Shown in pieces: positions 1,188 through 16,040 of a stretch of 20,879 nt of DNA. Position 1 is the stretch's first letter. Each line of letters starts with the position of its first letter. Below the pieces are notes generated by a model that searched no databases, had not been told where the DNA came from, and saw only the letters and a program-made list of their open reading frames with translations. The DNA is taken from the NCBI GenBank assembly GCA_021807085.1, contig JAKAPM010000013.1, forward strand, positions 1 through 20,879, in the 5' to 3' direction. This DNA comes from Nanobdellota archaeon. Its GTDB lineage: Archaea; Nanobdellota; Nanobdellia; Parvarchaeales; Parvarchaeaceae. Both the position numbers and the translations under genes were made by a program.

Positions 1188-1261
1188 TGGGGCGGCTGGG
1201 ATTTGAACCCAGGACCTCTGGCACCCGAAACCAGTGTCATACCAAGCTAGACCACTGCCCC
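1188..1261 (-). tRNA. tRNA-Pro (anticodon CGG), no intron, CCA not encoded
   Basis: Minus-strand read: GGGGCAG UG GUCU AGCUUGGUA UGAC A CUGGU UUCGGGU GCCAG AGGUC CUGGG UUCAAAU CCCAG CCGCCCC A. Full 74-nt cloverleaf with G37. One A6:C67 mismatch in the acceptor stem. Confidence 0.88.
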
Positions 1262-2271
1262 TGATCTTTCCTCTTGTAGGGAGGATACGTACCAATAGAC
1301 ATTATGACGCTGTCGGTTTTTATTGCTATACCTTTCGCTCCGTTAAGTATGTCTGCTGAGGATATCACAGATTTACCAAGGGCTATTATTTCGCCTTTCA
1401 GCGTGCATATACCGACAAGTTCATCATTTCCAAACCCGTTGAGCTTTACGATACCGGGTATAGCCAGTGGAGAACCATGACACACGGGGTCCACAGCACT
1501 GTCTGACACGAACACCTTCGGCAGAAAATCCAAAGCTCTCTCTATATTCTGTATCGAACGGTCCAGAAGCCTCGGATCGCTCTCGTTAGTGTAGAAATAC
1601 ACTCCATCATCCAGGTCCTGCAATGTTACTGGATTGTCAGCTTCCGACAGCGTGGACACTTTGGTACGTCTTAGGTCGGTCATGTGGGCACCAGTCCCGA
1701 GTTTCTCGCCAATGTCGTGTATAAGCTTACGTATGTACGTACCAGACTCCACGCCGGCCCTGAACAGCACGTCCCTGCCTTGTATCTCCAGAATATCTAA
1801 ATAGTACACCTCTCTCTCCCTGTATTGCCTTTTTACGTGGGATCTGACAGGAGGCATCTGCATTATCTTCCCAACGAAGCCCTTGAACGTATCTATAAGT
1901 AAGCGCTCGTCTACTTCTCCGTGAAGGTGCATGAGAGCGATATACTCCTTCCCACCTAACAGCAGCACGCTCAGCGCCTTCGTAGCGTTGTTTATCGCCA
2001 GCGGTAACAGGCCGGTCACTATGGGATTTCTTCAGGCTTCTAAAGTCCCTGAGTAACCGATCTTCTTAACGCCCAGCGGCGATAAAATCTGCTTGGCGAC
2101 TGCAGATGCCGTTCTGGACCGTATTCCCCTGGGCTTATCGAGGAGCACGAAGCCGAAATTTATACGCTGCTCTATGCTCCTTTTTTCCGGATACGATCCG
2201 TAGGCATCGTTAGTTTTCTCATCCTTAAGCGAAAAAACCTCGTGCTTAAAATTCTCCAGAGGGAGTCCCAT
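1237..2271 (-). CDS. cbf5: tRNA/rRNA pseudouridine-55 synthase Cbf5 (H/ACA RNP catalytic subunit). Interrupted by an in-frame TGA at 2032-2034. Predicted exons 2040..2271 and 1237..2027, giving 340 aa after removal of a 12-nt BHB intron.
   Basis: ORFs 2032..2271 and 1237..2019 are in the same frame. N-part: LLDKPRGIRSRT...KKIGYSGTL. C-part: VTGLLPLAINNATK...GKEYIALMHLH plus a PUA-like C-terminus. The conserved cmk-cbf5 neighbourhood is present. The splice model restores GTLDPIVTG. Confidence 0.85.
2028..2039 (-). other. Predicted 12-nt bulge-helix-bulge(-loop) mini-intron in cbf5 pre-mRNA (AAGCCUGAAGAA)
   Basis: The central 4-bp helix CUUU(2045-2042)/GAAG(2033-2030) is flanked by 3-nt bulges AGA(2041-2039) and AAA(2029-2027). 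The outer helix is GGGA/UCCC plus 9 further bp. Cutting after the 2nd nt of each bulge yields a GAU (Asp) codon. Confidence 0.7.
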
Positions 2272-2340: not shown

Positions 2341-2898
2341 TCAAACGTAGGCGGAAGCAGTCTTGATGTAGAAAATGGTTATTTTCAGTAGGTCCTCCGC
2401 TGAGAATCTGCTCGAGTTTATCACAAAATCGAAGGGACGCAGGTCGCTGTCCACCTCTATTCCATACAGTTTTTTGTAAATCTTAAGCGTCAGTTCGTCC
2501 TTTCTTTTTGTAAACGAGAGTGCCTGCTTGAATGGTATAGAATCACGTGAGGCCACACGCTTTGCACGCGTCATCACGTCGGCTTTGACGTATATCTTTA
2601 TCACGTCTTTCCCGTTGACTTTCCACGGGGCGACCCAACTATCGAGTACTACATTGTTCTTGGACGAAAAGTTTTTCACGATGTACCTGTCAAGTTTGGC
2701 ATCGGACTGCGGGTGTGCAAGCCTGAACCTCAACGCATCCAACCCTTCCTTTGACTCCCAAACGCCAAAATCTTTCTTCGGTAGTATGTCCCTGAGCTTT
2801 GAACTAGCGGAAAAATATTCGAATTTAAAAGCCATTGACAGGCCTCTAGCGAGGGTGGATTTTCCAGAGCCAGTCAGTCCGGAGATTATTATTTTCAT
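2341..2898 (-). CDS. cmk: Cytidylate (CMP) kinase, archaeal type
   Basis: P-loop MKIIISGLTGSGKSTLA. Overall pattern resembles archaeal CMK (…VVLDSW…IKIYVKADVMTRAKRVASRD…YGIEVDSD…FDFVINSS). Lies next to cbf5, as in many archaea. Confidence 0.75.
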   Translation of the reverse strand: MKIIISGLTGSGKSTLARGLSMAFKFEYFSASSKLRDILPKKDFGVWESKEGLDALRFRLAHPQSDAKLDRYIVKNFSSKNNVVLDSWVAPWKVNGKDVIKIYVKADVMTRAKRVASRDSIPFKQALSFTKRKDELTLKIYKKLYGIEVDSDLRPFDFVINSSRFSAEDLLKITIFYIKTASAYV

Positions 2899-2902
2899 AG
2901 GA

Positions 2903-5900
2903 TCAGGATATCGGAGTTGTATTTATCAGGTTACTGTTGTTCTTGAATACAGGGGGAAGATAACTCAGGTTGGCGCAGTAATTGGCATCGGATGATGAGA
3001 GCGAACACTGCTGTGTAAGCAGGTTGTATTTGGATATCTGTGAGTAGTTTATCTCGTATACATTCACGTTGGTCAGCACCTGATTTTCCACACTGAGGAG
3101 CGAATTTACTGGAAGGTTGTCGGAATACACCAGCTTGAAGCCAGGTACTGATTCGTTCAGTAAATAGAGCTTTGTGAACAGAGTATTCAGAGTCTCATTT
3201 GGCATGAAAAGGATAGAGAAGGAATTCCCAAAGTTGCTCAGGTTGACTGGCAGCTGTTCGTATCCTCCAGAAGCGTTAGGGTAGCCACCTATGTGTAGGT
3301 AAGCCGTGTTACTTGCGTTCAGAAGCATGATGCCGCCAGGCACACCGTCGTTGGAAACCTTTGTGCAGCCTGCACCGTAAACGCAGTTATAATCCAATGG
3401 AAGCGGAGGGGAGAGTTGCTGTAAAAGATTGTTGTACAGGATAACGTACGGATTGCCGAAACTGATGCTTCTGTTAGTCGCGTTGAAAGGTATCGTTACG
3501 TTGACTATGTAATAGTTGGAGCCGCTGCCAGCCTCTCCTGGAATGGTGCCGTTGAAGTATATCGGCACGATATTCGGAAGCGCGCTGAACGTCACGGTGT
3601 ACTTGTAGCTGCTGTTGCCGCCGAGCTTTTGGGTATTGTAACTTTCCCCAGTAACCCCTATCGGCGAGAATGAAGTCGGCTCCAGTGCTATGGTGGATAT
3701 CGCGGAAAATTTCAGCACCTCGCTGCCGCTTATGACCGCATAGTCTGGTTGGTGTATAAAGTTTAGGTATGTTGAATACGTGTACGGTGATGTCGCTTCG
3801 AAGAAGTATTTTGCTATCATAGACTGGTATCCGTAGGCATTGCTGCCGTCTGCAACGGAAGTTCTGTTGGCTATGGCCTCTATCCAGTATCCGTAGTCCC
3901 ACCACGCTATGACCGATGAATTAACAGGAGTGTTTTGACCTATCCACTGCATTGTGGGTCCCCACAGGAGAAGTCCGCTGCCACTCTGCTGTGACACGTG
4001 ATACGAAGTGGTGAGACTGTTGTTTAGGTCTAAAGCGACCAACGCCACCGCAAGCACGATGATTATCCCAACAACGGCGAACCTTATGTTCCTATTGTGC
4101 ACGAGGCTTTCGGCGAATGCTATGATATATTTGAACGATACGACTATGGCTAAAGGTATGATTATTACCGCCACGAATTCGGTCGGTTCCAGGAACCTGC
4201 TCTCGATATTTGACAGCGTCAAGGTCAGGAAAAAGAATGCGAACATCAACATAGATATTATTGACATCGTTTCTGTGGTTTCGTCCTGCCTGTCGAAGGC
4301 GAAGGCCAGCGCTATCAGCACTACCAGCCCCATTGCACCGTATTTATAGTAGTGCTCCGCCCCTGTAGCGTTCATGTTCAGGAACACTATGGACATTACG
4401 AATGATATGGCGGTCAAGAAAATCACGACAGAAATATATTTCTTGAGCTGGCTGTTTGGTTTGAAAAGCGCGTGAAACACTGGTATGAGCTCGCCCACTA
4501 TGAACACTGACAGGAGAGAGTAAGCTGTCAGACCGAAGTTGAAGATTCCTCCGTTGAGCAGGATCATCAGGGGAGTACCGAGAAGGAAAGGCACATACCA
4601 GTGCTTGAATCTCCTGATAAAGAAATAAAATAAGAATATCCCACCCAGGGAGAACAGAAGGAAATTAACTGGAAGCGCGTTGGCGGAACCGGTGCTGCCT
4701 AGCACGAAGTTGTAGTCTACGGCTCTTTGCACCAGGTTCAGAGGCTGGTATTCGGCTATCGTCTGGCTCACGGGGTTTACTATACCCACGCCAAGAGGGT
4801 AGAGTATCTGGCTGTATATATCCGAAAAGAAGTGGTTGAATGTATGTGCGCCTGCGAGGAGGAGCAGAAGCACTCCCAACCCCGCACTGTAAAGAATGGA
4901 GGAAAAACCGTGGTTTATGAACGGGAGTTTGAGTTTATGCTTGTACCTATCGTATACGACCAGCTTGAAGATGACAACAAGATATGCGAAAAGAAGGGGG
5001 TAGTAGTAAACGCTGTGTATCACTGAATCTATGGAAATATTCATGAAGCTCATCTGCATCAGCACGAGGATACCGAACGGCAGATACGCGTACAAGTCAC
5101 CCTTTTTGGCCCTGTCGGTGAGCACTAAGAGTATATAGAATATCGGGATCAGCAGAAGGAGATACCTGGAATAACCGGACGCATCCACCGCAAAGCCGGA
5201 AGCGACGGCGGTAGCGAAGCCGTACACTACTTTCGACCTGATACTCCTTGATTTGACAGATTTTACCACGAAGTACACGGCCAGAAGTATGAACATTAGC
5301 ACCATAGAGGTTTTCTGAGAGAACCCGGCATCAGACCTGCTGAGGAATGTCAAGAAAGCAGGTAGGATGAACGCGCTTATGCTGGCTATCCAATAATCTC
5401 CGAACAGCGCGAGGCACAGGAAGAAAAGGAGGAGGGCTGGGAATATCGTGAAAAACGCAGGAAGATACATGAAGGAAGTCATCGGAACCGCGCCGTTTAC
5501 CAGAGGGTCTATTACCCTAGCTGCGTACGCACCGAAGAAAGACACCATAAGCTCGTCTCCTCTCGGCACAAGTCCGATGGGGTAGTACTGGATATTACTT
5601 ACGGCGGGTACGTTTCCTGTGTGGAGTATGTTTAGCATACTGAGATAAAACGTGTAAGGGTCCAGCCCAGTAAGAGAACCCCCCATATTCAGATAGTTGT
5701 TCCCGATAACTGGCGAGTTCTGCTGCAGCGGGTTCAGAAGGGCCGGTATGCTGGCTGTGTGCACTGTCCAGCCGACTACAACCGCAAATAGCAGTAGAAT
5801 ATAGAAGAGGACCCGTCTTTTTATGAATATGTTATAGCCGCCATAGGCTATTTTCTTGACGTTCTTGGAGAGATAACCGAAATTGACCTCTACCTCTATC

Positions 5901-6094
5901 TCGGTTATCTTCTTTTTGGAGGATTCTAGTACCTTCTCTTCTTTTTCCAGCTTGGAGAGCCTCTCACTGTCCCTCTCCAACGCCCTCTCCTCGGTCTTTA
6001 GGGACTCCTTTTCGCTGCGAATCTCCCCCTTGATTTCTGATTCCTCTTTTTCTATCGATTTCTCTATCTTCTTGGGTTCGTCGTTCTCGGTCAT
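2903..6094 (-). CDS. aglB: Oligosaccharyltransferase AglB (STT3 family) with an E/K-rich N-terminal extension
   Basis: 1063 aa with many TM helices and a diagnostic WWDYGYWI motif, followed by a large soluble C-terminal domain. The first ~80 aa are a charged, coiled-coil-like segment. Confidence 0.9.
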   Translation of the reverse strand: MTENDEPKKIEKSIEKEESEIKGEIRSEKESLKTEERALERDSERLSKLEKEEKVLESSKKKITEIEVEVNFGYLSKNVKKIAYGGYNIFIKRRVLFYILLLFAVVVGWTVHTASIPALLNPLQQNSPVIGNNYLNMGGSLTGLDPYTFYLSMLNILHTGNVPAVSNIQYYPIGLVPRGDELMVSFFGAYAARVIDPLVNGAVPMTSFMYLPAFFTIFPALLLFFLCLALFGDYWIASISAFILPAFLTFLSRSDAGFSQKTSMVLMFILLAVYFVVKSVKSRSIRSKVVYGFATAVASGFAVDASGYSRYLLLLIPIFYILLVLTDRAKKGDLYAYLPFGILVLMQMSFMNISIDSVIHSVYYYPLLFAYLVVIFKLVVYDRYKHKLKLPFINHGFSSILYSAGLGVLLLLLAGAHTFNHFFSDIYSQILYPLGVGIVNPVSQTIAEYQPLNLVQRAVDYNFVLGSTGSANALPVNFLLFSLGGIFLFYFFIRRFKHWYVPFLLGTPLMILLNGGIFNFGLTAYSLLSVFIVGELIPVFHALFKPNSQLKKYISVVIFLTAISFVMSIVFLNMNATGAEHYYKYGAMGLVVLIALAFAFDRQDETTETMSIISMLMFAFFFLTLTLSNIESRFLEPTEFVAVIIIPLAIVVSFKYIIAFAESLVHNRNIRFAVVGIIIVLAVALVALDLNNSLTTSYHVSQQSGSGLLLWGPTMQWIGQNTPVNSSVIAWWDYGYWIEAIANRTSVADGSNAYGYQSMIAKYFFEATSPYTYSTYLNFIHQPDYAVISGSEVLKFSAISTIALEPTSFSPIGVTGESYNTQKLGGNSSYKYTVTFSALPNIVPIYFNGTIPGEAGSGSNYYIVNVTIPFNATNRSISFGNPYVILYNNLLQQLSPPLPLDYNCVYGAGCTKVSNDGVPGGIMLLNASNTAYLHIGGYPNASGGYEQLPVNLSNFGNSFSILFMPNETLNTLFTKLYLLNESVPGFKLVYSDNLPVNSLLSVENQVLTNVNVYEINYSQISKYNLLTQQCSLSSSDANYCANLSYLPPVFKNNSNLINTTPIS

Positions 6095-15939: not shown

Positions 15940-16040
15940 TGGCCCAGCCGTGATTCGAACACGGGACCTCTGCTTTACTCAAAGTTACTGGAACGCTCTC
16001 GTATAAGAGCAGCGCTCTAGCCGGGCTAAGCTACTGGGCC
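15940..16040 (-). tRNA. tRNA-Ile (anticodon UAU) with a 26-nt canonical 37/38 BHB intron (15976..16001)
   Basis: Minus strand: GGCCCAG UA GCUU AGCCCGGCUA GAGC G CUGCU CUUAUA[CGAGAGCGUUCCAGUAACUUUGAGUA]A AGCAG AGGUC CCGUG UUCGAAU CACGG CUGGGCC A. BHB: CUUA/UGAG central helix with bulges UAC and UAA. Confidence 0.85.

Follow-up and report, generated by a model that had tools for sequence, protein, structure and literature searches.

The window analysed here is the whole 20,879-nucleotide (nt) stretch of contig JAKAPM010000013.1 (GCA_021807085.1), from a Nanobdellota archaeon that belongs to the Parvarchaeota (ARMAN-4/5-like). Its minus strand carries cbf5 (2271..1237), a gene that starts with an ATG at 2271 and whose colinear translation runs into a single in-frame TGA. 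In the list of open reading frames (ORFs) the gene appears as two minus-strand pieces, 2032..2271 (79 amino acids, aa) and 1237..2019 (260 aa), which share one frame. Around the interruption the minus-strand codons are AAG ATC GGT TAC TCA GGG ACT TTA GAA GCC TGA AGA AAT CCC ATA GTG ACC GGC, read without splicing as K-I-G-Y-S-G-T-L-E-A-stop-R-N-P-I-V-T-G, a motif that lacks its Asp. An earlier note, made from the letters of the window, had taken the two ORFs for halves of one Cbf5, in a single frame and parted by the TGA, and both the codons and the ORF list agree with it. We consider it very probable that cbf5 is here a split gene, with a 12-nt intron of the splicing-endonuclease type placed between the G and the AU of the catalytic Asp codon.

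When positions 2039..2028 (AAGCCTGAAGAA) are taken out, G2040 is joined to A2027, the codons become UUA-GAU-CCC, and a 340-aa protein with the motif GYSGTLDPIVTG results, just as had been proposed. Pfam finds in this protein the full domain set of Cbf5 (DKCLD, TruB_N, TruB_C_2 and PUA), and the four domains together with the catalytic Asp in G-T-L-D-P, by which a Cbf5/TruB protein is recognized, are obtained only with the 12 nt removed. The alignment with Pyrococcus furiosus Cbf5 (2hvy_A) extends from end to end (E = 2e-93), with gtldpivtg placed over GTLDPKVSG, and D78 of the spliced protein stands opposite the GTLDP Asp in the alignments with solved Cbf5 structures. The predicted junction-spanning sequence is ...GYSGTLDPIVTGLLPLAINNATK and the corresponding tryptic peptide would be IGYSGTLDPIVTGLLPLAINNATK; the ARMAN-4/5 equivalents contain GYSGTLDPNVTG. 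The window by itself would allow the splice boundary to shift by 1 nt (removal of 2038..2027 gives the same product), and we fix it between G and AT because the relatives with 16-nt inserts show it there.

We scanned one genome per species, together with public metagenome contigs, and parsed 153 cbf5 loci around the GTL/DP junction. An insert occurs at the same nucleotide in 30 of them, the window and 29 further loci, with 27 distinct sequences (the intron-bearing loci are labelled L001-L014, L016-L018, L047, L065, L074, L077, L116, L124, L126, L132, L137, L141, L142 and L153). It measures 12 nt at 17 loci besides the window and 15-26 nt at 12 more. Within the Parvarchaeota clade, 19 of the 20 species genomes have the insert at exactly the nucleotide of the window, and in 16 of these 19, ARMAN-4 (L013, GG730049) and ARMAN-5 (L014, GG745548) included, it is 12 nt long with the consensus AAnnyTGAAGAA, the commoner 12-nt variant among relatives being AAGAUUGAAGAA. 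Three others (L018, L047 and L065), including an Acidifodinimicrobium metagenome-assembled genome (MAG), carry the 16-nt insert TGTGATTCACAAAGAA and a shifted frame, and L015, the sole intronless genome of the 20, reads TTAGATCCA uninterrupted. Seven more distant DPANN contigs, with 42-49% identity to the query and Woesearchaeota/Nanoarchaeia MAGs as nearest named relatives, have same-site inserts of 15 nt (L141, L153 and L142), 16 nt (L124, equal to L126, and L137), 18 nt (L116) or 26 nt (L132).

All these variants contain an in-frame stop, including the forms of 12, 15 and 18 nt, lengths divisible by three. The stop is UAA in L116, L124, L132, L137, L141, L142 and L153. Because of the stops in all forms, and of the frame shift produced by the 16- and 26-nt forms, the insert is untranslatable. 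At the 30 loci, exon 1 ends in ...YUAG and exon 2 resumes with AUCC, and excision leaves YTA-GAT-CCY, that is, L-D-P; with each bulge cut behind its second base, a functional product would result in the window and the 29 other loci, across five intron lengths. Throughout the clade both exons remain open, with 61-71% amino-acid identity, and intronless relatives read TTAGATCC, with a colinear GYSGTLDP in L015, L075, L076 and proteins P0002-P0017. An untranslatable insert kept at one bond between open exons, while some close relatives show the predicted junction, therefore bears the signature of an intron.

In a rough neighbour-joining tree, the intronless L015, L075 and L076 fall within the Parvarchaeota clade of intron carriers (16 protein clusters are intronless as well), and beyond this clade carriers occur dispersed among intronless sequences. 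Spliced copies were sought among the full-length close homologues P0002-P0017, and none was found; these proteins represent intronless lineages, either 100% identical to L015, L075 or L076 or 69-87% identical to any locus. A stop-free, unpaired version of the insert, which the earlier note had raised as a possible contrary sign, occurs at none of the insert-bearing loci. As for annotation, the best protein matches come from Parvarchaeota, and 29 of the best 120 protein clusters are sequences of 223-260 aa that cover the C-terminal 65-76% of the query; they are exon-2-only calls, several of which bear the name Cbf5 at NCBI. In NCBI/IMG, the Cbf5 of ARMAN-4/5-like genomes is reduced to exon 2 and thus lacks DKCLD and the catalytic Asp (P0018-P0056; P0025 cluster), a truncation that the intron introduces systematically into the annotation.

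The splice-site structure (Table 1) folds at -22.9 kcal/mol over its 49 nt, against -9.4 +/- 2.3 in shuffled sequences (z = -5.8; 0/200 shuffles as good), and every pairing that the earlier note had listed does exist. The minimum-free-energy fold adds A2041-U2034 and G2040-C2035, giving a 6-bp hairpin with an AAGC tetraloop and one AAA bulge. The helix-bulge-helix-bulge geometry claimed for the site holds in part: a 3' bulge between the exon-exon helix and the 4-bp central helix is present both in the window and throughout the 27 distinct sequences, but the geometry is not complete. Without an inner helix, the AGA taken for a 5' bulge belongs to a hairpin loop of 8 nt, and at 12 nt the motif is a bulge-helix-loop, not a full bulge-helix-bulge (BHB). 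After splicing, the RNA would keep a 7-nt loop, CUUUAGA, on the GGGA/UCCC stem. The intron loop reads GCC in the window, against GAU, AAU, UAU, CAU, GAC or GCU in relatives L001-L017, and its last base forms a G-C pair in the window and in L012 (loop GAC), which is the source of the 6-bp hairpin in the window.

Table 1. Positions, in window coordinates, of cbf5 with its putative intron and splice-site structure, and of neighbouring genes.
Feature	Position	Strand	Basis and remarks
cbf5 exon 1	2040..2271	-	ATG 2271 to G2040 (first base of Asp codon); ORF list, Pfam DKCLD; product: residues 1-77 plus one third of D78, with DKCLD domain and G-Y-S-G-T-L
Putative intron, 12 nt, AAGCCUGAAGAA	2028..2039	-	Base-paired to exon CUUU through GAAG (2033..2030) in its 3' part
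Intronic in-frame UGA	2034..2032	-	U2034 (loop-closing) plus GA of the central-helix strand
cbf5 exon 2	1237..2027	-	AT of Asp codon to stop TGA 1239..1237; rest of TruB_N, TruB_C_2, PUA
Splice-site structure	2012..2060	-	Folding and pair counts
Outermost helix, 9 bp	2052-2060 / 2012-2020	-	Folding
Internal loop, 2x2	between outermost helix and exon helix h	-	Folding
Exon helix h, GGGA/UCCC	2046-2049 / 2023-2026	-	Folding; Gly/Thr and Asp/Pro codons
Central helix, 4 bp, CUUU/GAAG	2042-2045 / 2030-2033	-	Folding
3' bulge AAA	2029-2027	-	Predicted cut after A2028
Predicted 5' site after G2040, within loop AGAAGCCU	2041-2034	-	Folding
tRNA-Pro(CGG)	1188..1261	-	Directly downstream of cbf5
Cytidylate kinase gene (cmk)	2341..2898	-	Upstream of cbf5
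tRNA-Ile(UAU), 101 nt	15940..16040	-	Rfam match; missed by ARAGORN
tRNA-Ile(UAU) intron, 26 nt, canonical 37/38 BHB	15976..16001	-	Hand parse

For the pair counts, the 27 distinct sequences were aligned, the variable inner part was masked and the structure given in the earlier note was used for scoring. In the central helix 100% of the cells are paired (27/27 sequences), under the forms CUUU/GAAG, CUUU/AAAG, CCUU/GAGG, CCUU/AAGG, CUCU/AGAG and CGUU/AACG. Both partners change in two of the four pairs, namely 22-34 (UA 22, CG 3, GC 2) and 23-33 (UA 25, CG 2), and by these double changes the 3' end of the intron therefore tracks synonymous changes in the Thr-Leu codons. Pairing reaches 97% in the exon helix GGGA/UCCC. 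The structure as a whole has a covariation score of 0.177, a value that none of 500 shuffles reached (0.139 +/- 0.005); 86% of its cells are paired, and sliding the partner lowers this to 32-56%. The 9-bp outermost helix was also tried as a conserved signal and rejected; it is paired in 75% of the cells, largely follows from the G-Y/H...V-T-G codons, and is a reinforcement specific to the window.

Codon choice points in the same direction, as the synonymous sites that form the stem and the bulges are fixed only in intron-bearing genes, a contrast which kinship inflates and on which about seven independent variants agree. Gly is encoded by GGG in 25/27 intron-bearing and 8/95 intronless sequences, Leu by NUA in 27/27 and 33/95, Asp by GAU in 27/27 and 56/95, and Pro by CCY in 27/27 and 28/95, respectively. 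Among the longer forms, a textbook hBHBh' motif is the minimum-energy fold of the 18- and 26-nt variants, and inner helices occur in L116 (GAAC/GUUC), L132 (UUUGA/UCAAA) and the 16-nt Parvarchaeota variant of L018 (GUG/CAC). Taking two inner base pairs from the 16-nt form yields the 12-nt form, in which an invariant A...U encloses a variable triloop. Minimum-free-energy folding alone misses the cleavage-competent conformer of the 12-, 15- and most 16-nt forms, and the structure was judged by covariation and the longer variants. Together with the 29 further loci, the stops, the frame shifts and the intronless relatives, covariation and codon constraint argue, as firmly as a comparison of sequences can, for the functional pre-mRNA mini-intron that the earlier note had suggested.

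In the mechanism that we propose, the GGGA/UCCC exon stem would form and CUUU, the last four bases of exon 1 before AG, would pair with the intronic GAAG. Stem and central helix would then present the 3' splice site in the AAA bulge, with the 5' splice site four base pairs away on the opposite strand, in a bulge or a loop. EndA would cut each bulge behind its second base, between G2040 and A2039 and between A2028 and A2027, and a ligase of the RtcB type would join the exons into UUA-GAU-CCC, yielding an active 340-aa Cbf5 (GTLDPIVTG). An mRNA left unspliced would terminate at the intronic UGA after 79 residues, and no full-length protein devoid of the Asp would therefore be made.

Several points weigh against this scheme. 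That splicing occurs, which enzymes carry it out and where exactly they cut is what we infer from the sequence. In the window, the cleavage-competent conformer (-14.8 kcal/mol) is 4.2 kcal/mol less stable than the competing 6-bp hairpin (-19.0 kcal/mol), a gap of 1.3 kcal/mol in most relatives. The 5' site of the 12-nt form, without an inner helix, falls within a loop of 8 nt (AGAAnnnU) that has no more than one A-U pair, and the second 3-nt bulge closed by an inner helix h', which a BHB should have, is missing from the window and from all 12-nt relatives. The controls of the pair counts keep the phylogenetic non-independence of the sequences; the Parvarchaeota motifs are mostly near-identical, and the covariation rests on about seven independent variants.

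The endonuclease is a further difficulty. ARMAN-4 and ARMAN-5, both hosts of the insert, are reported to encode a single 177-aa EndA of the alpha4 type, epsilon2 belonging to ARMAN-1/2 (Micrarchaeota) (PMC3239211), and the ARMAN-4 enzyme (EEZ93328) is described as devoid of the L3 accessory loop typical of other DPANN EndAs (PMC5829648); this class is described as cutting only strict BHB motifs. Pre-mRNA splicing, in turn, has been proposed to be linked to hetero-oligomeric EndA (Yoshinari 2006, as relayed in PMC2738675 and PMC10485636). Neither EndA nor RtcB is found among the genes of the window, and the type of endonuclease is taken from the literature on ARMAN-4/5. The heterotetrameric or epsilon2 EndA which the earlier note had considered necessary does not fit these data, as ARMAN-4/5 carry the same intron and are yet reported to have alpha4 only (PMC3239211, PMC5829648). 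One of three options should apply: a plain alpha4 enzyme cuts a bulge-helix-loop, one A-U pair is enough to serve as h', or there is a further subunit that has escaped notice.

Other explanations of the interrupted gene have to be considered. The two ORFs could be translated as they stand, with 79 aa (...GTLEA) and 260 aa (from the GTG at 2019) assembling non-covalently into an Asp-less Cbf5, perhaps a scaffold of the H/ACA ribonucleoprotein. Gene callers and NCBI call exactly these two pieces, a GTG follows the stop, and split proteins occur in other DPANN, such as Nanoarchaeum equitans. Such a permanently divided protein is nevertheless very unlikely: G precedes and AT follows the insert in 30/30 loci, so that excision always recreates Asp-Pro, and the insert covaries with the Thr-Leu codons to hold a 4-bp helix, something that a spacer has no reason to do. 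For the second half, no conserved start codon or ribosome-binding context was seen, the exon-2 calls (223-260 aa) having varied starts, and the architecture of the insert matches that of the crenarchaeal introns in this codon, for which splicing has been shown in published experiments. Translational recoding, whether by ribosomal readthrough, by a 12-nt hop (a bypass of the gene-60 type) or through a reassigned UGA, is a highly improbable solution too. The insert does resemble that of phage T4 gene 60 in being short, in starting just after a Leu codon and in having a stop, but the unspliced RNA contains no GAU or GAC there and no hop yields Asp-Pro, a landing before AAU-CCC giving Asn. An in-frame hop would require matched take-off and landing codons, and these are absent (the only GAA...GAA pairs lead out of frame into UAG), readthrough would produce GTLEAxRNPIVTG, again without Asp, and relatives use UAA and frame-shifting 16- and 26-nt inserts.

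Decay of the gene would be in line with the reduced genomes of DPANN: a 12-nt insertion or duplication would have inactivated cbf5, which would now be on its way to loss as in reduced symbiont genomes, and GAAG does appear twice in GAAGCCTGAAGAA, in the manner of a slippage duplication. We see barely any probability in this pseudogene, as the interruption is common to at least 19 species-level genomes whose Cbf5 sequences differ in about 30-40% of their amino acids, and in which the exons are open, the domains intact and no other frameshifts or stops occur. Moreover, the species-genome scan finds one cbf5 locus per genome, and no intact second copy of the kind that the earlier note had considered. 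A sequencing or assembly artefact in this contig would be favoured by the small size of the insert and by nothing else, and we give it practically no chance. The 96 nt that include the intron are identical in five contigs, among them an ENA MEGAHIT contig and the Logan assembly of SRR13206618, and such identity between independent assemblies means that there is no assembly error. The exon-2 ORF of the window is present on five contigs, the 79-aa DKCLD ORF is also called by the gene caller in independent contigs, and homologous inserts are found in dozens of independent MAGs.

With regard to the genomic neighbourhood, the order cmk-cbf5 is also found in L154-L158. A 1063-aa multi-pass membrane protein (2903-6094, minus strand) adjoins this pair; its match to the STT3/AglB core is weak and sub-threshold (E = 3e-4), and it is probably a very divergent oligosaccharyltransferase. 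On the other side, the cbf5 frame overlaps tRNA-Pro(CGG) by 25 nt (1237-1261) before reaching its stop. The same tRNA lies directly after cbf5 in L001, L013, L014, L017, L018 and L047, not in the intronless L015, and the arrangement suggests that cbf5 is co-transcribed with tRNA-Pro(CGG). ARMAN lineages are reported to lack TiaS and to use tRNA-Ile(UAU), and the window, in keeping with this, contains such a tRNA. Its intron combines a central helix CUUA/UGAG, bulges UA/C and UA/A (the slash marking the cut) and an inner helix GAG/CUU, in the same geometry as the cbf5 intron, and from the presence of this intron-bearing tRNA in the window it follows that the organism depends on EndA/ligase splicing. 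Near cbf5 there is also a tRNA-Leu(AAG), with A34, in L013 (5462-5546), L014 (5393-5477) and L015 (6119-6203), which fits the unusual A34 tRNAs described for ARMAN-4/5.

Inteins form another kind of interruption in this gene. Two cbf5 genes of a Nanoarchaeia lineage (L072:3157-5412 and L142:1735-3585) contain an intein with Pfam Intein_splicing and LAGLIDADG homing endonuclease matches, located in the motif GTYIRK/C...N/CHD. In L142 the intein coexists with a 15-nt mini-intron at the Asp codon, and this single gene would therefore be interrupted at both the RNA and the protein levels.

Our full-text literature search, which covered few subscription journals, found no report of a cbf5 intron outside the Crenarchaeota. 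The only additional BHB intron reported in archaea was, as of 2020, that of the crenarchaeal cbf5 mRNA (PMC7714728), a 2023 review regards the cbf5 intron as confined to a small group of related archaea (PMC10485636), and the papers on ARMAN endonucleases make no mention of cbf5. Introns in archaeal protein genes are so few that they can be counted on one hand, and the Parvarchaeota and other DPANN extend the range of the cbf5 intron to a second superphylum. As the interrupted phosphodiester bond is the same, it has to be asked anew whether the intron is ancient, transferred or convergent. A length of 12 nt, smaller than any listed cbf5 intron and near the lower limit of tRNA introns, in genomes whose reported endonuclease is the 'strict' alpha4 type, offers a clean in vitro test of the rules between EndA and its substrates, and the forms of 12, 15, 16, 18 and 26 nt, together with the intronless ones, make up a natural series on intron shrinkage and loss. 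On a more practical side, the mis-annotated Cbf5 of ARMAN-4/5 and dozens of MAGs distorts completeness estimates, as well as the inferences that DPANN lack functional H/ACA pseudouridylation.

How does the cbf5 intron compare with known systems? In eukaryotes, the HAC1/XBP1 mRNAs are spliced by Ire1 and a tRNA ligase or RtcB, in a process that is not spliceosomal. There too, a very short mRNA intron falls to a structure-specific endonuclease followed by a ligase of the tRNA type, and its removal changes the translatable product. The nuclease, however, is Ire1 instead of EndA, it acts on twin stem-loops, the process is regulated by stress, and the intron is not in a catalytic codon.

Canonical tRNA introns (hBHBh' at 37/38) are closer. 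They share with the cbf5 intron a 4-bp helix between the 5' exon and the 3' part of the intron, 3-nt bulges cut after the second base, and a comparable size, tRNA introns starting at 11 nt (PMC2738675), with the cbf5 exon helix playing the role of the anticodon stem. In contrast to them, the putative intron of the window is in an mRNA and inside a codon, has no inner helix at 12 nt and has no tRNA body that could aid recognition. Outside the Crenarchaeota, an mRNA substrate of the splicing endonuclease is known in Haloferax volcanii, where HVO_1309 has a BHB intron in its 5' untranslated region (Schwarz 2020, PMC7714728). As is reported for ARMAN-4/5, that organism has no heterotetrameric EndA (PMC7714728, PMC10485636), but its intron sits in an untranslated region, whereas the one in the window interrupts the coding sequence and the catalytic codon itself.

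The most direct counterpart is the pre-mRNA intron of crenarchaeal cbf5 (Desulfurococcales and Sulfolobales), for which cDNA and in vitro cleavage have been published; it lies between the first and second base of the catalytic Asp codon, and measures 16-44 bp in all 32 intron-bearing entries (PMC2738675, Additional file 1 for the sizes). Its motif is usually relaxed, and its absence from some nested lineages has been read as loss. The earlier note could not tell whether the two positions coincide; they do, with an identical split of the Asp codon between G and AY (PMC2738675; L155, L156). A profile built from the junction fragments of Sulfolobus solfataricus and Aeropyrum pernix Cbf5 (PMC2738675 Additional files) gave only colinear fragments from other phyla, and was uninformative because split genes match half of such a query. 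A search with the S. solfataricus exon-2 fragment returned 9 short proteins, three of them leading to contigs L154, L155 and L156. L155 and L156 are TACK-type contigs split at the Asp codon, with introns AGCCCUUACUCACGUAAGGGCGGUGAA (27 nt, between CUAG and ACCCU) and AGCCCCUUUAAUGGGGCGGGGAG (23 nt, between CUAG and ACCCC), which show intron ends A...GAA and A...GAG, an A-G-N 5' bulge, an R-R-A 3' bulge and GC-rich interiors unrelated to that of the window. L154 has stops in the N-terminal region of the stretch examined, with the Asp codon outside it, and may be a poor contig.

Both introns occur in the same gene, and in both the 5' bulge is made of exon A-G plus one intron base, and the 3' bulge of two intron purines plus exon A. 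Both are short, too small to encode anything and often built on a relaxed motif, and both are patchy, with intronless lineages nested among carriers. They differ in their hosts, DPANN (Parvarchaeota and Woese-/Nanoarchaeota-like carriers) against TACK, and in size, as the 12 nt of the window and 17 relatives fall below the crenarchaeal range (15-26 nt in the other DPANN variants). The interior of the window intron is AU-rich where the crenarchaeal type is GC-rich, with no similarity between the two, and its Asp codon is GAU, against GAC in L155 and L156. The EndA is reported to be a plain alpha4 in ARMAN-4/5, against the (alpha-beta)2 enzyme linked to crenarchaeal pre-mRNA splicing, and the crenarchaeal intron has cDNA support, whereas the DPANN one is known from genomic sequence.

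Codons and BHB geometry dictate the site and the bulge bases that the DPANN and crenarchaeal introns have in common. A convergent origin of the shared site is plausible, because the coding context GGGAC...GAUCCC itself supplies the exon stem. It is also possible, although we find it rather doubtful, that the Asp-codon intron is old or repeatedly acquired, common to TACK and DPANN, and that its Parvarchaeota form has been pared down to a 12-nt bulge-helix-loop cut by a plain alpha4 EndA. Just as tentatively, and as part of this joint reading, the always-present stop and the constrained exon codons could mark a maintained checkpoint which couples the output of the pseudouridine synthase to the tRNA-splicing capacity. 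If this reading were true, it would overturn the need of (alpha-beta)2 or epsilon2 enzymes with accessory loops for pre-mRNA splicing and relaxed motifs, as well as the single origin of the cbf5 intron in the ancestor of Desulfurococcales and Sulfolobales. Gene and site are those of the crenarchaeal intron, and so, very probably, is the mechanism; what is new is a second superphylum, the DPANN, a smaller size and an unexpected endonuclease context.

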